Source: an uncultured Gemmatimonadaceae bacterium (GTDB lineage Bacteria > Gemmatimonadota > Gemmatimonadetes > Gemmatimonadales > Gemmatimonadaceae). From it: a stretch of 64,000 nt of DNA. A model generated the notes under the pieces. The model made no database searches, had not been told where the DNA came from, and worked only from the letters and a program-made list of their open reading frames with translations. Positions 12,754 through 22,242 of this stretch are shown here, in pieces. Position 1 is the stretch's first letter. The number at the start of each line of letters is the position of its first letter. The position numbers were made by a program, and so were the translations under genes. The DNA lies in assembly GCA_963817955.1 (NCBI GenBank), contig CAWFQK010000007.1, positions 1 to 64,000 of the forward strand, read 5' to 3'.

Positions 12754-14388
12754 ATGACCAGCAGACGTGATTTCCTCCGTCATACCGGCACCGCGGCCGC
12801 CATCGCGGCGGCCGGAGCAGTGCTTCGGCCCGGGATCGTCGGCGCGCTAGGCGCACAGCCGGTGTATCCGCCAGGCGTCGGTACATTCGAAGAACTGCCA
12901 ATCAAAGAACTCCTCATGGAGGCCCTGAACGCGGCCAAGGCCGCGGGCGCATCGTTCTCTGACGCACGACTCAGCCGGTATCGACAGAGCTTCGTTGGCA
13001 CGCGTGAGAAGCAGATCGTGCAGGTGGGTGATACGGATTCCATTGGCATTGGTGTTCGCGCCCTCGTGAACGGTGCCTGGGGGTTTGCCGCATCACAGAC
13101 ACTGACGCGTGACGGCGTCGTGGCCGCAGCGCGGGAGGCCGCGGCGATCGCCAAGGCGAACCGGATTCCGGGAGCCACACCGGTGACGCTCGCGCCCGCA
13201 CCATCCTATCCGAACGCGACGTGGAAGAGCTCGTTCGAGATCGATCCCTTCACGATTCCAGTTGAGCAGAAGGCGCAGCTCCTGATTGACGCGAACACGG
13301 AATCGATGAAAGTCGCGAATGTGAAATTCGTGAACAGCTTCCTCTTCTTCATCAAGGAAGATCGCAATTACGCGAACACCGACGGATCGCTCATCACACA
13401 GACGATCATTCGGAGTTGGGTGCCCTTCACGGCGACGGCAGTGTCTCCGGACTTCAGCGACTTTCAGTCGCGAAGCAACGTCGTGCAGCCTGCAGGACGA
13501 GGCTGGGAGTACGTCGTCGCGTCCGATCTCGTCGGCAACGCGCGGAAGTGGGGCGAGGAGGCGGCCGAGAAGCTCAAGGCGAAACCGGTCCAGGTGGGTC
13601 GCTACGATCTCGTGCTACATCCGTCGCATCTCTGGCTCACGATTCATGAATCGATCGGACATCCTACCGAGCTCGATCGGGCCATGGGGTACGAAGCCAA
13701 CTACGCGGGCACGAGCTTCGTGTCGCCGCCCGAGAAGGTGCTCGGGACACTCAAGTATGGCTCCGAGATCATGAACATTCAGGGCGACCGCACGCAGGAC
13801 GGCGGCTGCGCCACGATCGGGTGGGACGACGACGGCGTGAAGGCCGAGTCCTTCCTGATCATCAAGAACGGAATCTTCCACGACTATCAAACCAGCCGCG
13901 AGCAGGCGCCCTGGCTCGCGGACTACTACAAGAAGAACGGCATGCCGGTGAAGTCGCATGGCTGCTGCAACGCCGACAACTGGAGCAGCGTGCAGTTCCA
14001 GCGTATGCCGAATGTCTCACTGCTGCCTGGTGCGCAGGACAAGACGTGGGAGGATCTGATCGCCGCCACCGACAACGGCATCGGCATCGTCGGCGATGGC
14101 TCGTTCTCGATCGATCAACAGCGGTACAACGCGCAGTTCGGCGGGCAGGTCTTCTATGAGATCAAGGGCGGGAAGATCACCGGCATGCTCAAGGACGTCG
14201 CGTACCAGATGCGGACGCCGGACTTCTGGAACTCCATGGACATGATCGGCGGTAAGTCGAGCTACATGATGGGCGCCAGCTTCTTCGATGGAAAAGGCCA
14301 ACCGGGCCAGATCGGATCGGTGAGCCACGGTTGCGTGCCAGCGCGCTTCCGCAACATCAACGTCATCAATACGGGGAGCAAATCATGA
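12754..14388 (+). CDS. tldD: TldD/PmbA family metalloprotease, TldD-like, with Tat signal
   Basis: SRRDFL twin-arginine motif; HESIGH zinc motif; RMPN; GKGQPGQ. Confidence 0.9.
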   Translation: MTSRRDFLRHTGTAAAIAAAGAVLRPGIVGALGAQPVYPPGVGTFEELPIKELLMEALNAAKAAGASFSDARLSRYRQSFVGTREKQIVQVGDTDSIGIGVRALVNGAWGFAASQTLTRDGVVAAAREAAAIAKANRIPGATPVTLAPAPSYPNATWKSSFEIDPFTIPVEQKAQLLIDANTESMKVANVKFVNSFLFFIKEDRNYANTDGSLITQTIIRSWVPFTATAVSPDFSDFQSRSNVVQPAGRGWEYVVASDLVGNARKWGEEAAEKLKAKPVQVGRYDLVLHPSHLWLTIHESIGHPTELDRAMGYEANYAGTSFVSPPEKVLGTLKYGSEIMNIQGDRTQDGGCATIGWDDDGVKAESFLIIKNGIFHDYQTSREQAPWLADYYKKNGMPVKSHGCCNADNWSSVQFQRMPNVSLLPGAQDKTWEDLIAATDNGIGIVGDGSFSIDQQRYNAQFGGQVFYEIKGGKITGMLKDVAYQMRTPDFWNSMDMIGGKSSYMMGASFFDGKGQPGQIGSVSHGCVPARFRNINVINTGSKS

Positions 14389-15737
14389 GCGCCGTCGATC
14401 CCCGCGTGATGTCGCGCGAACAAGCACAGGCGCTCGTGGAGCGCACGATCAAGCTGTCGAAAGCCGACGCCGTGCAGGTGAACGTCGGCGGCGGCTACAA
14501 CGCCAACATCCGCTTCGCCGACAATAGAATCTCCACCGCCGGCGGTGTGTCCACCGCGACGCTGAACATCGAGAGCGCGTTCGGCCCGAAGCACGCGGTG
14601 GTTTCGACGAATGACTTCTCTGACGAGAATCTCGAGCGCGCCGTGCGACAATCCGAGGCGCTGGCGAAGCTCGCGCCGAATGATCCCGAGGCAATGCCGT
14701 TACTGGGGCCGCAGCAATACGAAGCCGTGAACACCTATTTCGACGCGACGGCAAAGCTCGGTCCAGAGGGCCGCGCCGAGGCGGCGCGCATGGCCATCGA
14801 TCCGTGCAAGGCGGCGGGCGACCTCAAGGCAGCTGGTTTTCTGATAACCGGAATCGGTGCCAGTGCGGTGGGCAACAACAAGGGCTTGTTCGCGTATCAG
14901 TCGGGCACCTCGTCGAATTACACGCTCACGGTGCGCACCGCGGACGGGACGGGTTCCGGTTGGGCCGGCGCCGATCACCCCGACTGGTCGCAGATCGACG
15001 TCAAAGGCGTCGCGCAATGCGCGATCGAGAAGTCGCATCTGTCGCGCAACCCGGTGGCAATCGAGCCTGGGCGCTACACGGTGATTCTCGAGCCGCAGGC
15101 AGTCGGCGACCTCGTGCAGCTCCTCGCGTTTGCACTCGACGCGCGCTCGGCGGACGAAGGGCGCAGCGCCTTCTCCAAGCAGGGTGGCGGAACGAAAGTT
15201 GGCGAGAAGATCGTCGATGAGCGCGTGACACTCTTCTCGGATCCCGCCGATTCGCAGCTACTGACCAACGCGTTCGACGGGCAGGGATTGCCGGCACATC
15301 GCGTTTCGTGGATCGAGAACGGCGTGCTCAAGCGCCTCACGTACTCGCGCTTCTGGGCCCAGAAGAAGAATCAGCAGCCGGATGCCGGCACGAACGCCGT
15401 GAAGTTCTCTGGCGGGACGCAGACGACGGAAGATCTCATCAAGTCCACACCCCGCGGCATTCTCGTGACGCGACTCTGGTACTTGCGGCCGGTCGATCCG
15501 CGCACCGTGCTGTATACCGGCCTCACGCGCGACGGCACGTTCCTGATCGAGGACGGAAAGATCTCCAAGGCCGTGAAGAACTTCAGGTTCAACGAGTCGC
15601 CGCTGTTCATGCTGAACAACCTCGACGCGATCGGCCGCGCGGTGCGCGTGGCAGGCACCGAGGCGGGCGGCGATGTCGTCATGCCGTCGCTCAAGGTTCG
15701 TGACTTCAACTTCACCAGTCTGTCGGACGCGGTGTGA
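14385..15737 (+). CDS. TldD/PmbA family partner subunit (TldE-like)
   Basis: ATGA overlap with tldD; EPGRYTVILEP, FDGQG, TGLTRDG, NFRFN motifs; no HExxxH. Confidence 0.88.
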   Translation: MSAVDPRVMSREQAQALVERTIKLSKADAVQVNVGGGYNANIRFADNRISTAGGVSTATLNIESAFGPKHAVVSTNDFSDENLERAVRQSEALAKLAPNDPEAMPLLGPQQYEAVNTYFDATAKLGPEGRAEAARMAIDPCKAAGDLKAAGFLITGIGASAVGNNKGLFAYQSGTSSNYTLTVRTADGTGSGWAGADHPDWSQIDVKGVAQCAIEKSHLSRNPVAIEPGRYTVILEPQAVGDLVQLLAFALDARSADEGRSAFSKQGGGTKVGEKIVDERVTLFSDPADSQLLTNAFDGQGLPAHRVSWIENGVLKRLTYSRFWAQKKNQQPDAGTNAVKFSGGTQTTEDLIKSTPRGILVTRLWYLRPVDPRTVLYTGLTRDGTFLIEDGKISKAVKNFRFNESPLFMLNNLDAIGRAVRVAGTEAGGDVVMPSLKVRDFNFTSLSDAV

Positions 15738-15777: not shown

Positions 15778-17028
15778 CTACGGCAGGTGGACGATCTTGC
15801 CCATGAACAACACCGTCCCGCTGAGTCGCTCGCGAATGACGAACACATACGGACTGTCTACACGCATCACTGTGGCGACGGGCACCGCCGTCACGACGAC
15901 TCCGCCGATCGTGACCGCGGCGGCTTCGGTGCCTTCTTCGTCGATTGCCACGAACGTGTTCTGTCGTACCGTGGAGATCTCGAGCTCATGACCACGCGGC
16001 GACATGGGCGTGAAGTCCGCAGCACTGGTGAACGCCGCGTGCATTCCGAGCGCCTGGAGATCAGGGATCAATGCGCGTTTCCACGCCAGGGTTACGCGCG
16101 GCAGATACAGGTCTACGTATTGGGAATGAAACGAGGCAGCAAGCTGGTTCCAGCTTTCCGGTGACAGCGACAGGGCAACGGACTGTACGTCTGCGCCGAG
16201 CTTGGGCAGCAGTACGGTCATCGTGAACGATGAGTCACCGTACGCGAGATCGACTGCTTGGAACTTGTCAGTCTCGGCATACGCCATGTACTGCGTGCGG
16301 TGCATCAAGCGCGCGCTCTGATCGCCGCCAACAGAGTGAAATGGGGCATCGATCGTCTTGTTGGAATCGAACCGTTCGCGCCAACTGCCCTTGAAGTACA
16401 TGGCGTTGAGCAAGTACATCACGTCGTCGGAATGGACGGTGTCGAGCATGGACGGGATACGCCCGTTCGTCTTGGCATTCACCCATCCGTTCACTGCCGC
16501 GAGCGTGCCCGGCACGTCGTCGAAGTTCTGGGCAGTGACGTCGGCGTCGAAGTACGACGCGGCGCCGGTCAAGAAGGTCTGGTTGAACGGGAACCCGCTG
16601 CGATAGAAGATCGCGTTGGTGATCTGCATCGTCGTGGACGCGTCCAACGATGTCAGTAGCCCAATGAGCGACTTGTAGCCGCTGTCGATGGCGCCGAGTG
16701 AGGCAGTGTCGAACCGCAGCGCCGACCGCGTCTCGTCGAAGGTCTGTCCGGCTGCCCCGTTCAGCGCCATCCCCAGAGCGAACGATGCGCTGAGTGGTGA
16801 AACGAAGACATTGTCGCCGGTCTGGTCGGCGTTGATCGTCCGGAACAGATCGAAGGAGAACGCGCTGGCGGCGCCGAGTACGTCGCGCTCTGCTGGCGAG
16901 AGGGCGCGGGGCAGTGCAGTACGCGCGGCGCTGGTCCCATTGGACGGTGCCGTGGCGGAATGCCCGGAGCAGGCGGCGATGCCGATACAGACGACGCTCA
17001 CGGACAGGATGCGACCGAATCCCAGCAT
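15778..17028 (-). CDS. Serpin family protease inhibitor, lipoprotein
   Basis: Lipobox IAA-C; NVFVSPLS, NAMYFKGSW, hinge DEEGTEAAA, C-terminal VDSPYVFVIRE...LFMG. Confidence 0.93.
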   Translation of the reverse strand: MLGFGRILSVSVVCIGIAACSGHSATAPSNGTSAARTALPRALSPAERDVLGAASAFSFDLFRTINADQTGDNVFVSPLSASFALGMALNGAAGQTFDETRSALRFDTASLGAIDSGYKSLIGLLTSLDASTTMQITNAIFYRSGFPFNQTFLTGAASYFDADVTAQNFDDVPGTLAAVNGWVNAKTNGRIPSMLDTVHSDDVMYLLNAMYFKGSWRERFDSNKTIDAPFHSVGGDQSARLMHRTQYMAYAETDKFQAVDLAYGDSSFTMTVLLPKLGADVQSVALSLSPESWNQLAASFHSQYVDLYLPRVTLAWKRALIPDLQALGMHAAFTSAADFTPMSPRGHELEISTVRQNTFVAIDEEGTEAAAVTIGGVVVTAVPVATVMRVDSPYVFVIRERLSGTVLFMGKIVHLP

Positions 17029-17116
17029 GGAGCCTCCTGGCGGATAGAGTGGGCGACACGCGGCCCGTCATATGATCTAACTGGGGGTCGAAGGTTGCGT
17101 CATCCGGGAGTATGTC

Positions 17117-17144
17117 TTGACGAATGCAGGGCTCGAAGTACCTT
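17117..17144 (+). promoter_or_regulatory. sigma70-like promoter of the metK leader
   Basis: TTGACG-16 bp-TACCTT places the start near 17150, right at the first helix of the leader. Confidence 0.55.
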
Positions 17145-17150
17145 CAATGC

Positions 17151-17273
17151 GCGCGGTGATTTCCCCCGATTTGACGGGCCGCGCACGGAGGCGAGAACGC
17201 CCCGCGAAACCCGTCTAAGTCGTGGGGCGATGGATCGGCCCGCGACAAACAAGTCGGGGGCCGTTTTCATTTT
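17151..17273 (+). ncRNA. Candidate SAM-II-like riboswitch with terminator/anti-terminator
   Basis: P1 GCGCGGU/GCCGCGC, loop GAUUU, pseudoknot CCCCCGAUUUGACGG with CCGUC(U)AAGUCG(U)GGGG, terminator stem 17236-17263 plus U-tract; upstream of metK. Confidence 0.7.
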
Positions 17274-17301
17274 CTGATGGCGCTACGGCGCGGAGATCAC
17301 C

Positions 17302-18387
17302 ATGAGCTCGTACACGTTCTCGTCGGAATCAGTCAGCGAAGGCCATCCGGATAAGGTTTGCGATTATATCGCCGACTCGATCCTCGACGCACATCTCGCG
17401 GGAGACCCCAACAGCCGCGTCGCCTGTGAAGTGCTTGCCAAGAGCGGCCAAGTCGTGCTGGCGGGCGAAATCACGTCGCGCACGGACGTCGATTACGAAA
17501 AGGTGGCACGCGAGGCGATTCGCGAGATTGGCTATAATGACGCCAAGGAAGCGTTCAACGCCGATGGCGTGAATGTCATTCAGTTCATCAGCAAGCAGTC
17601 CGGCGACATCGCGATGGGCGTGGACACGGGTGGAGCCGGCGATCAGGGCATCATGTTCGGCTATGCCAGTGACGAAACGCCGGAGCTCATGCCGCTGCCA
17701 TTGCAGCTTGCGCATAGCCTGTCGCGCCGTCTGGCGACGGCTCGGAAGAAGGGCGAGCGGATGTGGCTCCGTCCCGATTCCAAGACGCAGGTGAGCGTTC
17801 GCTACGAAGACAACCAGCCCGTTCGCGTCGAGACCGTGCTCGTCTCCACGCAGCACACGGCCGAGGCCTCACAAGACGAGATTCGCGATTTTGTCGCGAG
17901 TTGCCTCTGCCCCGAGGTGCTCGGTGCCTGGTTCGGCCCACACGTCGAGGTCCTTGTCAATCCGACCGGCCAGTTCATTGAAGGCGGCCCGTCCGCGGAC
18001 TGTGGCGTTACTGGTCGCAAGATCATCGTCGACTCGTACGGCGGTGCGGGTCGGCATGGCGGCGGCGCATTCAGCGGCAAGGATCCGTCGAAGGTGGACC
18101 GCAGCGGCGCCTACTTTGGCAGATTCGTCGCCCGTCAGGTCGTGAAGGCGGGATTCGCGAACCGCGCGGAAGTACAGATCGCCTACGCAATTGGCCGCGC
18201 CGAGCCGGTGTCGGTGCGAGTCGACACGTTCGGCACGGGCGATTGGAAGGCGGCCGAGGAGTTCGTTCGCACCTTCGACTACCGTCCGGCTGCCATGATC
18301 GAGCGCCTGGCGTTGCGGAACCCGATTTACCGTTCGACCACCAACTACGGGCATTTCGGGAAGGCGGACTTGAGCTGGGAGCAGTAG
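17302..18387 (+). CDS. metK: S-adenosylmethionine synthetase
   Basis: SESVSEGHPDK, GAGDQG, GRKIIVDSYGG, GGGAFSGKDPSKVDRS, YGHFG. Confidence 0.98.
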   Translation: MSSYTFSSESVSEGHPDKVCDYIADSILDAHLAGDPNSRVACEVLAKSGQVVLAGEITSRTDVDYEKVAREAIREIGYNDAKEAFNADGVNVIQFISKQSGDIAMGVDTGGAGDQGIMFGYASDETPELMPLPLQLAHSLSRRLATARKKGERMWLRPDSKTQVSVRYEDNQPVRVETVLVSTQHTAEASQDEIRDFVASCLCPEVLGAWFGPHVEVLVNPTGQFIEGGPSADCGVTGRKIIVDSYGGAGRHGGGAFSGKDPSKVDRSGAYFGRFVARQVVKAGFANRAEVQIAYAIGRAEPVSVRVDTFGTGDWKAAEEFVRTFDYRPAAMIERLALRNPIYRSTTNYGHFGKADLSWEQ

Positions 18388-18485: not shown

Positions 18486-20555
18486 TTACCAGACGACCGC
18501 CCTCTTCTCTGCCGGCCTCAGCATGCTATCCCCGTCCTTGCATCCCCATGCCTTGGCGAACTCCGGCATGTTGCTCAATGGGCCGTTGACGCGCCATAAG
18601 GCCGGCGCGTGCGGATCGCTCTTTACCTGCGCTTTTGCGGCTTCGTTACGCTGCAAGGTGCGCCAGACCTGCGCCCAGCCGAGGAAGAAGCGTTGCTCCG
18701 GCGTGAATCCATCGATGTTCGGTTGCCGGCCCTTTGCCTGCATCGACTTCTCCATCGCCAGGTAGGCGATCTTCAGTCCGCCGAGATCGCCAATGTTCTC
18801 GCCGAGCGTGAGGCGACCGTTCACGTGGGTCGTGGAGTCGACGATGGTGTAGGCATTGAATTGGTCGACTACGCGCTGCGCCTGTGCGTTGTACTTGTCG
18901 CCGTCTTCCTTGGTCCACCAGTCGCGCAAGTTGCCCTTTGCGTCGAAGCGGCGCCCTTGATCATCGAACCCATGCGACATCTCATGGCCGATCACCGCAC
19001 CCATTGCGCCGTAATTCACGGCGTCGTCGGCGTTTGCGTCGTAAAACGGCGGCTGGAGAATGCCGGCCGGGAACACGATCTCGTTCCAGAGCGGGTTGTA
19101 GTACGCATTCACTTGATCGACCGTCATGCCCCACTCGGTCTTGTCGATCGGCTTGCCAACCTTGGCCCAGCTGATGGCTCGCGACCACGTGGAGGCGCGA
19201 TGCAGATTGCCGCTGTATTCGCCGCGCTGCACGTCCAGCTTGGAGTAATCGCGCCATTTGTCGGGGTAGCCGATCTTGCGCGTGAACGCGTCGAGCTTGG
19301 TGATCGCCTGCTTCTTCGTCGAGTCGCTCATCCAGTCGAGCTGCCCGATCTGGTCATGGAGCACCGACACCATGTTGTCCACGATCGCCTTGGCTCGCGC
19401 CTTGGCCGCGGGTGGGAAGGTCTTGTTCACGTATTGCTGGCCGACGGCCTCGCCCAGCACGCCCATCGTGGTGTTCGTGCAACTCTTCCAGCGTGGCAGC
19501 CGCTCCTTCTGCCCCGTGAACAGCTTGCGAAACGCAAAGCTCTCGTCGGCGAATCGCTTGGGCAGCGCGCCCGCCGAGCTGCTGAGGAGGCGCCAGCGGA
19601 GCAGCGTCTTCCAGTTCTCTACCGGGATGGACGTGAGATAGCCATCCATCGCTTTGAAAAAGTCGGGCTGCGCGACGTTCACCTCGGTCACGGCCGGAGC
19701 CTTTTGCGCCGCGAGAAAGGACTTCCACTTCAGGTGGGGGGTGAGCGAATCGAACTGAGCAATCGTCATCAGATGATAGATCGCCGTCGGATTGCGCATC
19801 GTCACGGGGTCCATCGACGCGTTCGCGAACTTCGTTTCCATGTCGAGCACCGTACGCGCATGCGTAGCGGCGTCGGCGCCATTCTCGCCGTACAGCTCGA
19901 ACATCTTCGTGACGTGTGCCACGAATGCGTCGCGGATCTTCTGCATACTCGTGTCGGCCGAGAGGTAGTAGTCCCGCTGGCCGATCGAGAGGCCGCCCTG
20001 GCCGGCGTTGGCGATCAGGCGACTGGAATTCTTGAGGTCGGGGCCGGCGCCAATGCCGAACGGCGCGAGACCATCTCTTTCTTCGAGGTCGGCCATGGCT
20101 GCGGGCAGATCCGCCGAGGAAGAGATCTTGTCGATGCGGGACATCGACGCCACGAGGGGCGTGGTATCGAGTCGCTCGATTGCTACCGTGTCCATGCACG
20201 CGTCGTAAAACGCGCCGATGCGGTACAGGTTCGTCCCCGGCTTTGCCGTTCCGGCGCGCATCGCTGTCGCGGCCGACTCGACGATCTCGTGCACGACCGT
20301 CTGATTCTTGTCCTGGAGCGTTTCGAACGAACCCCAGGAGGCGTACGCCGCGGGAATCGTATTGTGCTTCAGCCAGCCGCCGTTGGCGAAGGTGTAGAAA
20401 TCGGTACAGGCCGCGCAGGTGGTGTCGAGGTTGGCACGGTCAATGGCCTTGGTGGCAACCGCGGGCTTCGCGGGCTGTCCGGCCGGCTGCTGCGCGCGGG
20501 CCGTGCCCGCAGCCAACAGGCCGAGCAATGAGACGCGAGTCAGTATGTGTCGCAT
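18486..20555 (-). CDS. M13 family zinc endopeptidase, secreted (paralog of 7089-9146)
   Basis: Signal peptide MRHILTRVSLL...ARA-Q; VNAYY, HEMSH, GENIGD, HAP. Confidence 0.95.
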   Translation of the reverse strand: MRHILTRVSLLGLLAAGTARAQQPAGQPAKPAVATKAIDRANLDTTCAACTDFYTFANGGWLKHNTIPAAYASWGSFETLQDKNQTVVHEIVESAATAMRAGTAKPGTNLYRIGAFYDACMDTVAIERLDTTPLVASMSRIDKISSSADLPAAMADLEERDGLAPFGIGAGPDLKNSSRLIANAGQGGLSIGQRDYYLSADTSMQKIRDAFVAHVTKMFELYGENGADAATHARTVLDMETKFANASMDPVTMRNPTAIYHLMTIAQFDSLTPHLKWKSFLAAQKAPAVTEVNVAQPDFFKAMDGYLTSIPVENWKTLLRWRLLSSSAGALPKRFADESFAFRKLFTGQKERLPRWKSCTNTTMGVLGEAVGQQYVNKTFPPAAKARAKAIVDNMVSVLHDQIGQLDWMSDSTKKQAITKLDAFTRKIGYPDKWRDYSKLDVQRGEYSGNLHRASTWSRAISWAKVGKPIDKTEWGMTVDQVNAYYNPLWNEIVFPAGILQPPFYDANADDAVNYGAMGAVIGHEMSHGFDDQGRRFDAKGNLRDWWTKEDGDKYNAQAQRVVDQFNAYTIVDSTTHVNGRLTLGENIGDLGGLKIAYLAMEKSMQAKGRQPNIDGFTPEQRFFLGWAQVWRTLQRNEAAKAQVKSDPHAPALWRVNGPLSNMPEFAKAWGCKDGDSMLRPAEKRAVVW

Positions 20556-20805
20556 GGGAGGGAGTGGGGGGGGAGATGAGCCAATTATGACCAGCACGTT
20601 CTGTCTTCGCTCATATGGATCTAACACCGGGCCAGCTCCAGTGGCAGCGCGCCACTTGGCAGGACGCAAGGACGCAGGTTCAACTTTCATCACCAAGGTG
20701 TCGATCCTCATGCGAGCCAGCGGCGTGCCTGTGTTGCGCCGTGGCGGCCGACTCGTATGAAATCGTACGCATCGCCAGCACCCTGTTCCCCCCCCCGGCA
20801 GCCGC

Positions 20806-22242
20806 ATGTTTCGATTTCCACGTGTGCTTCTTGGCGCGACAACACTCGCTGTTGCGTTCGCCGTCGGCGCAGCCTCATCGCAGGCACCGCAATCCGGCGT
20901 CCGGCCGCTCGCTCATTCGCGCCAGGTGCTGCCCAATGGTCTCGTGGCGCTGTTCAACGAGGATCACTCATCGCCCGTGGTTGCCGTGGACGTCTGGTAT
21001 CACGTCGGCGCGAAGAACGAGTTGCCCGGGAAGACGGGGTATGCCCACCTCTGCGAACATCTGATGAACGAGGGCTCGCCGAACGAACCGCTGGCTGAAA
21101 AGAACTTCGTGCAATCAATCGGCGGGACATCGACGCGGTGGGCGACCACCACGGAAGACATCATGCACTTCTTCGCCACGGTGCCGCGGAACCAGCTCGA
21201 GACCATGCTCTGGCTCGAGTCTGATCGCATGGCGGCGCCGATGGCGCACGCCGACGATCAGCGACTCGCAATGGTGCGGGATGCGATCCGGCAGGAGCGG
21301 ACGCAGGATCGCGAAGGGCAGGTGTTCGGCCTCGCGAAAGCGCTCTCGCTTCCATGGCTCATGGATGTACCGTATCGGATCGACCCGCTCGGCCCGATGA
21401 CGGATCTGAACGGGGCTACCGTCGCGGACGTCAAGCAGTTCTGCCTTCCGTATTTCGTTCCGAACAATGCCGTGATTTCGTTGAGCGGCGATTTTTCGAC
21501 GGCGCAGGCCGCGATGCAGGTCAAGAAGTATTTCGGAGGCATCGCGCGCGGCCCGGCACCGCCTCGTCCGGCGGTGACTCCACTGCATCGCGCGGCGCAG
21601 CAGCGACTCGTGCTCGAGGACGCGCGGGCAGGGGGTGCCTTCCGCTTGCGGCTCTTATGGGCAGGCGCAGCGTTTTCATCGCCGGACCGTCTGGCGCTCA
21701 TGGCGCTGGGTTCCGTGTTGTCGCGCGATCGAACCGGACGTCTCACGAAGGCGCTGGTGTACGATCGTCCGCTTGCCACACGCGTTCTCGCGCAGCATTT
21801 CGACTTTGAGCAAGCGGGTATTTTCCAGGTAGAGGTCTATCCTCGTCCGAACGTTTCGCTCACGACCATCGAGCAGGTGGCGGATAGCGTGCTGGCGGCC
21901 ATCAACGAACATGGCGTTTCTGAGGACGAGCTGGTTCCCTTCAAGCGCTCCAATGCAGTCGTGGCTGTCACGACGCTTCAGTCGCGTGCGGCGCGCGCCG
22001 ACACGCTCGCTCACGGCGAGATCTTCGCCGGCGATCCCGTTGCCTACGCGACACAGGTTGCCCGCGCGAATGCACTGACGGCGGCCGATATTCTGCGCGT
22101 CGAGCGACAGTACCTTGGTGGCGACGGAGTGGTGATGAGCATGATCCCGGCAGGCAAGCTCGATCAGATCGCAAAACCGGAGCTGCCGTTCGTCAACGTG
22201 ACGAAGAACGCGACCATGCCGGGAAATCGGGTGGTGCCATGA
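20806..22242 (+). CDS. M16 (pitrilysin-like) peptidase, catalytic subunit
   Basis: Signal peptide; inverted zinc motif HLCEH; WLESDRM; PNNA. Confidence 0.92.
   Translation: MFRFPRVLLGATTLAVAFAVGAASSQAPQSGVRPLAHSRQVLPNGLVALFNEDHSSPVVAVDVWYHVGAKNELPGKTGYAHLCEHLMNEGSPNEPLAEKNFVQSIGGTSTRWATTTEDIMHFFATVPRNQLETMLWLESDRMAAPMAHADDQRLAMVRDAIRQERTQDREGQVFGLAKALSLPWLMDVPYRIDPLGPMTDLNGATVADVKQFCLPYFVPNNAVISLSGDFSTAQAAMQVKKYFGGIARGPAPPRPAVTPLHRAAQQRLVLEDARAGGAFRLRLLWAGAAFSSPDRLALMALGSVLSRDRTGRLTKALVYDRPLATRVLAQHFDFEQAGIFQVEVYPRPNVSLTTIEQVADSVLAAINEHGVSEDELVPFKRSNAVVAVTTLQSRAARADTLAHGEIFAGDPVAYATQVARANALTAADILRVERQYLGGDGVVMSMIPAGKLDQIAKPELPFVNVTKNATMPGNRVVP

Follow-up and report, generated by a model that had tools for sequence, protein, structure and literature searches.

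A conserved pseudoknot before metK in Gemmatimonadaceae as a probable SAM riboswitch variant of the SAM-II/SAM-V type with a terminator platform

The metK Leader and Its Pseudoknot Element

The window analysed here is a stretch of 64,000 nucleotides from an uncultured Gemmatimonadaceae bacterium (assembly GCA_963817955.1, contig CAWFQK010000007.1, positions 1 to 64,000 of the forward strand). In this window, the open reading frame (ORF) 17302-18387 on the + strand (361 aa) is metK and encodes S-adenosylmethionine (SAM) synthetase, as confirmed by all three S-AdoMet_synt domains of Pfam (E values of 2e-38 to 3e-58); the position before metK given in an earlier prediction, which had been made from the sequence alone and is referred to as the original prediction, was therefore correct. 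Upstream, a serpin gene (15778-17028, -) lies on the opposite strand, so the 270-nt spacer between the two genes represents the promoter-plus-leader region of metK. A 72-nt element (17151-17222) within this spacer precedes metK. The element is close to certain to be at least a conserved cis-regulatory pseudoknot RNA and is probably a SAM-responsive riboswitch of the SAM-II/SAM-V type (probability of about 0.7).

The positions of the individual features are listed in Table 1. All the helices proposed in the original prediction were found in their places by direct reading of the sequence. The 166-nt leader folded with an energy of -84.1 kcal/mol, compared with -63.8 +/- 4.2 kcal/mol in 200 dinucleotide shuffles (z = -4.81), none of which was as good. 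The bulged U17216 sits between G17173:C17215 on one side and U17172:A17217 and U17171:A17218 on the other, and G17219 stands at the place of a conserved A of SAM-II and SAM-V. Pairing of CCCC (17163-17166) with GGGG (17224-17227) is possible in this window only, and the four-pair extension of P2 that had been proposed from these bases was not conserved in relatives.

Table 1. Features of the metK leader, with the canonical SAM-II aptamers of the same genome
Feature	Position	Strand	Remarks
P1, 5' strand GCGCGGU	17151-17157	+	pairs with 17178-17184; seven pairs, the last U:G
Loop 1 GAUUUCCCC, starting with GAUUU (17158-17162)	17158-17166	+	presumed third strand of a major-groove triplex
P2, 5' (descending) strand CGAUUUGACGG	17167-17177	+	pairs with 17211-17222; abuts the P1 3' strand
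P1, 3' strand GCCGCGC	17178-17184	+	partner of 17151-17157; pairing and covariation
P3 hairpin in loop 3	17186-17204	+	variable in sequence and length
A-rich linker CGAAAC	17205-17210	+	5' of the P2 3' strand
P2, 3' (ascending) strand CCGUC-U-AAGUCG, U17216 bulged	17211-17222	+	pairs with 17167-17177
Proposed switching strand GUCGUGGG	17219-17226	+	partner either 17167-17170 (upper P2) or 17239-17246 (antiterminator)
Terminator hairpin, GC-rich	17236-17263	+	about -24.7 kcal/mol for 17227-17270, a range that includes extra closing pairs outside the stem
U tract UUUUCAUUUU	17264-17273	+	directly 3' of the terminator hairpin
Small hairpin GCGC-UACG-GCGC	17280-17291	+	read from sequence and folding
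Shine-Dalgarno sequence GGAG	17292-17295	+	follows the small hairpin; read from sequence and folding
Promoter-like boxes TTGACG (17117-17122) and TACCTT (17139-17144)	17117-17144	+	16-nt spacer; read from sequence
Canonical SAM-II aptamers of the same genome (L204-L206)	C2:1011204-1011279; C4:1199514-1199585; C2:374684-374754		

Covariation and Conserved Bases

A covariance model was built from 28 distinct copies of the element (alignment A1), and the sequences found by the model only made up alignment A2 (31 distinct sequences). Alignment A3 (97 distinct sequences) was taken from the matches listed in a scan with a pattern in International Union of Pure and Applied Chemistry (IUPAC) code, in which many core bases were fixed and part of P1 was allowed transitions only, while loop 1 lay outside the pattern.

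On A3, 98.0% of the 1740 cells of P1 and P2 were in standard pairs, and the pairing dropped to 29-47% when the 3' partner was slid by 1-3 columns. Changes on both sides were observed at 5 pairs, against a mean of 1.8 in shuffles, of which 1 in 500 reached 5. For P1, 99% of the cells were paired and both-side changes occurred in 3 of the 6 counted pairs, as exchanges of G:C with A:U and of C:G with U:A; the seventh pair, Y:G, was always C:G or U:G. For P2, 97% of the cells were paired and both-side changes were found at two pairs of its lower part, with A:U/G:C at one and C:G/U:A/A:U at the other, the latter in 32 of the 97 sequences. The same two P2 pairs, together with two P1 pairs, covaried on A2, where 96.9% of the cells were paired. 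The H-type pseudoknot resembling SAM-II and SAM-V that had been predicted was thus borne out, with covariation in both of its helices. The pair G17178:C17210 was poorly supported, being unpaired in 23 of the 97 sequences, and G17178 is more likely to pair with the pyrimidine before it, closing P1, than with C17210.

Conservation on A3 extends to unpaired bases. In loop 1, UU was present in all 97 sequences, the preceding U in 91, the A in 82 and the G in 93. Loop 3 varied from 12 to 38 nt without a conserved sequence and was short in some members (12 nt in L132, 13 nt in L138), and a hairpin of at least three pairs was possible in 96 of the 97 sequences. The five nucleotides before the P2 3' strand were enriched in A (36% compared with 15% overall). 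Among the model-found sequences, the only exceptions to UUG opposite C-U-AA with the bulged U were L057, L058, the second copy of L038, L057:498-561 (the weakest row) and L200. At L200:395-462, from Vicinamibacteria, G replaces the bulged U (CUAUCGAAGUUG) and the downstream gene was not recognisable; this copy may be decayed or of altered specificity.

Relation to Known SAM Riboswitches

The whole window, searched against Rfam 15 at gathering scores, gave no match to any family. With all 4227 families at E<=10, the region 17030-17320 matched no SAM family and no T-box, and the SAM/SAH model (RF01727; SAH, S-adenosylhomocysteine) was also without a match; the only four matches, Termite-flg, SBWMV1_UPD-PKh, ctRNA_p42d and malK-III, were at chance level and were rejected. 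When the whole genome was searched at E<=10 with SAM_alpha (RF00521, cut-off 36 bits), SAM_V (RF01826) and SAM-II long loops (RF01726, cut-off 44 bits), the metK leader remained untouched by all three, and the predicted escape from standard models was confirmed. Other parts of the genome yielded three canonical copies with SAM_alpha (39.3, 37.1 and 33.1 bits), each with a hairpin and a U run. These copies precede genes for a homocysteine methyltransferase (metH-type), a homoserine dehydrogenase (hom) and a Cys/Met pyridoxal phosphate (PLP) enzyme (metY-like), so that in this genome canonical SAM-II serves the methionine genes and metK alone carries the variant. The SAM-II long loops model reached two of these canonical loci in the genome, below its cut-off only. 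No description of the variant was found in full-text searches, whose scope excluded most subscription journals and supplements, so that a prior mention is possible.

In the structure of SAM-V, as far as it is described in PMC6061858, three bases of the third strand (U8, U9 and U10) make contact with the bulged U47 and build two triples, U20:A48.U9 and U19:A49.U10; the SAM adenine pairs with U47, the sulfonium lies beside the U20:A48.U9 triple, and A50, weakly paired to A18, holds the amino-acid end of SAM. A P3 hairpin follows P1, and adenines lie in the P1 minor groove. In the element, GAUUU of loop 1 corresponds to the third strand of SAM-V and SAM-II, U17216 to U47, U17172:A17217 and U17171:A17218 to U20:A48 and U19:A49, and the hairpin in loop 3 to the P3 of SAM-V, and the A-rich linker would correspond by its position to the A-minor adenines. 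The exception is A50, at whose position G17219 is paired with U17170. This equivalent was G paired with U or C in all 28 sequences of the first model set and in 29 of the 31 sequences of A2.

In the SAM_alpha consensus and the three copies of the same genome, P1 ends with GG followed by YGAUUU, the loop ends with UUGC before the P1 3' strand, and the 3' tail is GCUAAA, with U bulged between G:C and U:A. The GAUUU loop, the UUG opposite C-U-AA and the bulged U named in the original prediction are all present, and they match the Rfam consensus as well as the description in PMC6061858. The element shares with SAM-II (RF00521) the H-type pseudoknot, YGAUUU right after P1, UUG opposite C-U-AA with one bulged U, a P2 5' strand that abuts the P1 3' strand, methionine (Met)/SAM genes downstream and, often, a terminator. 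It differs from SAM-II in having five pairs in lower P2 (a possible sixth, G:C, being poorly supported) instead of 2-3, four contiguous pairs in upper P2 without an internal loop, G:Y in place of the conserved unpaired A of CUAAA, and a P3 hairpin in loop 3. In addition, it occurs in Gemmatimonadota and Vicinamibacteria records rather than in Proteobacteria, where SAM-II is mainly found.

With SAM-V (RF01826), as described in the same source, the element has in common the topology, P3 after P1, the A-rich segment that precedes the 3' strand of P2, a lone bulged U beside U:A pairs and a U-rich third strand. SAM-V hides the ribosome site in a two-pair P2a, whereas the element is followed by a terminator and the Shine-Dalgarno sequence lies about 70 nt downstream, outside the aptamer. 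SAM-II long loops, reported from Bacteroidetes and marine samples in the relevant part of PMC2864571, is likewise a SAM-II relative missed by the original model, but its own model has no match at the metK leader. The SAM/SAH riboswitch is, according to the sections on it in PMC2864571 and PMC7367207, an H-type pseudoknot which is metK-specific in Rhodobacterales, where SAM-II serves other met genes, and which binds both ligands (PMC7367207); it differs from the element in core sequence, in its translational control and in a model without a match here. On sequence grounds, 17151-17222 appears to be an aptamer that belongs structurally to the SAM-II/SAM-V group as a separate, undescribed variant.

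Expression Platform

Of the 136 distinct aptamers, 104 had a stable hairpin ending at a U run in the 110 nt that follow, compared with 42 of 136 in the upstream flanks. From 60 randomly picked post-aptamer segments, 14 were dropped by eye as near-duplicates or atypical layouts (e.g., L048, L132, L145 and L179), and RNAalifold on the remaining 46 gave a terminator stem base of seven pairs, six of which had compensatory changes. The terminator-type platform of the original prediction is thus conserved, and the metK leader combines a GC-rich hairpin and U tract with an alternative helix, one strand of which also belongs to the aptamer.

The top of the terminator 5' arm almost always ends in CGCGAC, with CGAC or CGAU there in 132 of the 138 distinct segments. 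It is complementary to the last four bases of the aptamer, GUCG, and the bases that follow (8 pairs in the window). This helix, which would serve as the antiterminator, had at least six contiguous pairs at a fixed distance in 94 of the 136 leaders. Compensatory variants were observed in L013, L038, L040, L114 and L139; the two strands are GUCGUGAG/CUCGCGAC in L013 and GUCGAGG/CCUCGAU in L038 and L059. The duplex energy was -14.0 kcal/mol, whereas shuffling the partners gave -10.6 kcal/mol (z = -1.5).

The original prediction had placed the antiterminator elsewhere, between 17163-17173 and 17250-17260. These strands are indeed complementary (11 pairs, one G:U), since the terminator 3' arm nearly copies the aptamer 3' end, but as an antiterminator the helix shows only weak conservation (-8.9 kcal/mol, against -6.9 kcal/mol with shuffling; z = -0.9). 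The helix between the P2 5' strand and the terminator 3' arm may contribute to switching. A competing hairpin had also been proposed, and its arms 17198-17207 and 17220-17229 can form 10 pairs (one G:U) here; across 139 leaders, the equivalent duplex was no better than shuffled (-6.7 vs -6.5 kcal/mol, z = -0.1) and the hairpin is therefore peculiar to the window. Because the GUCG helix is better conserved, the switch is placed at GUCG 17219-17222. The earlier reading was thus partly supported: its core holds, with a pseudoknot resembling SAM-II that would turn metK OFF through termination and that goes unseen by standard models, whereas its account of the switching needed correction.

Distribution across Genomes

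BLASTN with 17100-17310 gave matches in 29 of the 30 other genomes of the genus and in 35 of 61 genomes overall, the window's own included, with a few in the family and the order; the block 17150-17267 was conserved in these matches. Within the order, 29 of 151 genomes carried the element according to the covariance model, representing 13 of 63 genera and all three families. In a phylum-wide sample outside the order, it was found in none of 46 genomes (families f4-f12).

The IUPAC pattern scan of public species genomes gave at least 119 stretches. Among the matches listed, the titles name Gemmatimonadota (Gemmatimonas, Roseisolibacter and many metagenome-assembled genomes (MAGs) of Gemmatimonadaceae and Gemmatimonadales) and Vicinamibacteria/Acidobacteriota MAGs. 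The model, although trained on the other phylum only, also matched 22 of 151 genomes sampled from the class to which one Vicinamibacteria record belongs. One listed match, L132:572-627, comes from a 2.8-kb contig of an Acidimicrobiia-titled MAG and has a 12-nt loop 3 with no real P3; it may represent a mis-binned contig or a third phylum.

Downstream Genes and Tandem Arrangements

Among the listed pattern matches, 76 loci had 400 nt or more of downstream sequence, and for these the closest ORF on the same strand was assigned with Pfam. Met/SAM genes followed the element at 55 loci: metK at 37, a Cys/Met PLP enzyme (metY-like) at 16 and an alpha/beta hydrolase of the metX type at 2. The others were 1-Cys peroxiredoxin (3), SNF2 helicase (2), MacB (1) and ORFs with no Pfam match (15). 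In Vicinamibacteria, a terminator and a MetK N-terminus were visible by eye after 18 of the 22 matches. The 1-Cys peroxiredoxin, an unusual target for a SAM riboswitch, was observed after the element and hairpin at L052:1607-2275, L077:580-1215, L104:582-1292 and L113:581-1216, and at L113 it is followed by an OsmC-like protein. In L038, the element occurs twice on the same strand, at a distance of 940 nt (712-776 and 1654-1718, the latter also listed as L127); the first has C instead of the bulged U and precedes a YceI-like gene, while the second is followed by a short region with no clear gene.

Tandems with a canonical SAM_alpha aptamer over the cut-off were found at seven loci. In six of them, from a genus titled Gemmatimonas (L035, L037, L040, L041, L047 and L049), SAM_alpha lies about 100-200 nt after the element and hairpin, with its 3' strand reaching into the ribosome site of a metY-like gene. 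The seventh, L039, with SAM_alpha in the same range of distances, belongs to another genus, and its genome is flagged as unpublished. SAM-I (cut-off 44.4 bits) followed the element over the cut-off at L045 (48.5 bits, 1669-1772) and L067 (47.9 bits, 1450-1556) and below it at L064 (42.9 bits) and L044/L097 (41 bits). The ORFs picked after the variant and SAM-I (L044, L045, L057, L064 and L067) had no Pfam match and no mutual alignment, and they are probably wrong frames. At L045:1905-2502, after the SAM-I tandem, a protein-like frame of about 200 aa (MNTNLF...) without a Pfam family was noted, which may be a new member of the SAM regulon.

According to the survey data in PMC9481103, tandem SAM riboswitches comprise 149 SAM-II/SAM-V, 44 double SAM-II and 7 arrangements of SAM-II before SAM-I/IV, in which the first member has a terminator and the second controls translation. 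The same layouts were observed here, with the first aptamer carrying a terminator and, in the SAM_alpha tandems, the second overlapping the ribosome site before a metY-like gene, which indicates that the variant fills the slot held there by a SAM-II aptamer. Unlike the tandems described in that survey, those found here start with the variant, which is partnered by SAM_alpha or SAM-I. At metK, Rfam detected no leader in five genomes, four of Gemmatimonas and one from a different genus. In five variant-bearing Vicinamibacteria genomes, SAM_alpha gave no match at E<=0.001, a threshold at which control genomes were equally silent.

Proposed Mechanism and Alternative Explanations

SAM as the ligand, the triplex and the order of folding are inferred. 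Loop 1 would lie in the P2 major groove. If the solved structures of SAM-V and SAM-II are taken as a guide, the SAM adenine would pair with the bulged U17216, and the sulfonium would lie beside the U:A.U triples. With ligand bound, upper P2 (17167-17170/17219-17222) would be locked, so that the terminator with its U tract forms and metK is OFF. In the ligand-free state, GUCGUGGG would instead pair with CCCGCGAC (17239-17246) in the terminator 5' arm, allowing read-through, with metK ON.

Several points weigh against a SAM riboswitch of this kind. The pattern by which A3 was gathered had pre-set many core bases and the kinship of the sequences inflates the shuffle tests; moreover, 6 of the 12 P2 pairs are invariant on A3, which leaves upper P2 supported by a U:G/C:G change on one side (50 vs 47). 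The element lacks the tail-binding adenine of SAM-II and SAM-V (CUAAA; A50), and with G:Y in its place a part of the known SAM-V pocket is missing. Ahead of its invariant UU, loop 1 has no more than three bases with which to span the five-pair lower P2, a tighter fit than in SAM-V. The SAM_alpha, SAM_V and SAM-II long loops models pass over the leader, and the variant's own model in turn gave noise only (4-7 bits) at the canonical SAM-II loci. On the side of the platform, the terminator detector is lenient, as seen in the upstream control, and the antiterminator is only modestly above shuffles (6.2 vs 5.05 pairs). A simple consensus scan of 16900-17500 flagged neither promoter nor terminator and was counted against the observation, the terminator having been missed because its stem has single-base bulges, which the scan disallows. 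Finally, 21 of the 76 loci have no evident Met/SAM gene downstream.

The replacement of the tail-binding A by G:Y makes an altered ligand specificity conceivable, in which the same fold and switch would respond to SAM and SAH alike or to another adenosyl-sulfonium compound. The invariance of G at the position given to A50 in PMC6061858 is in line with this, as is the division within the genome, which reserves the variant for metK and SAM-II for metH, hom and the metY-like gene in parallel with the metK-dedicated SAM/SAH class of Rhodobacterales as outlined in the cited sources; the variant also stands repeatedly in tandem with a second, different SAM aptamer. However, the bases used in SAM-II/SAM-V to recognise adenine and sulfonium are all kept (the bulged U, the two U:A pairs and the loop-1 UU), the regulon of metK, metY-like and metX-like genes and the OFF logic suit SAM, and same-ligand tandems of different SAM classes are documented in the survey of PMC9481103. 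Such a change of specificity is therefore considered unlikely. It is similarly doubtful that the tandems with SAM-I or SAM-II act as two-input gates, as they would with an altered specificity, and there is little probability that the element is a separate riboswitch class, with a pocket lacking the tail-reading adenine and another specificity, serving as an own sensor for metK and in two-input gates before SAM-I/SAM-II.

A structured leader without direct binding of a small molecule, in which a protein, tRNA or the translation of a leader peptide would control the terminator, is very improbable. The only short frame in the leader (AUG 17230, 15 codons) does overlap the terminator, yet its AUG is missing in relatives and it has no run of Met codons, so leader-peptide attenuation was rejected. 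Conservation of the unpaired bases extends over two phyla and follows the layout of the solved ligand pocket, as far as published descriptions of it go, and neither T-box nor the other Rfam families matched at E<=10. It is hardly credible, finally, that the resemblance to SAM-II/SAM-V is a coincidence and the leader merely a stable hairpin with an attenuating terminator and no sensing. GC-rich sequence folds readily, as the terminator-like matches in the upstream control indicate, and shuffled partners also yield five-pair helices, but coincidence would not account for covariation in two interlocked helices, invariant loop bases, the Met/SAM genes after most of the copies or independent placement before other SAM riboswitches. 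A SAM-responsive riboswitch thus remains the preferred reading of the element.

Further Features of the Locus

The promoter-like boxes 5' of the element would put the transcript start at about 17150, right at P1, and a TAnnnT-type box recurs 6-13 nt 5' of the aptamer in relatives. Relatives also retain a hairpin of different sequence, judged by eye, at the position of the small hairpin before the Shine-Dalgarno sequence. The end of P1 with part of loop 1 (GGUGAUUUCC, 17156-17165) is complementary to GGAGAUCACC (17293-17302), which includes the Shine-Dalgarno sequence (10 pairs, one G:U); the minimum-free-energy fold joins these two stretches, and GAUUUCC/GGAGAUC is also present in several relatives. 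This complementarity may be a by-product of a pyrimidine loop and a purine ribosome site. Around metK, the serpin gene, an M13 peptidase gene (18486-20807, -) and a PmbA/TldD-type metallopeptidase gene (14331-15737, +) form a small protease-related cluster.

Implications

If the SAM riboswitch reading is correct, the element would represent a third structural branch of the SAM-II/SAM-V group, present in two soil phyla, Gemmatimonadota and Acidobacteriota (Vicinamibacteria), whose metK leaders are left unannotated by current libraries. With more than 140 sequences on hand for a new covariance model, annotation pipelines could mark such leaders. The list of mixed-class tandem SAM riboswitches would be extended as well, and the variant would offer a natural experiment on how far the triplex pocket tolerates the loss of the tail-binding adenine.

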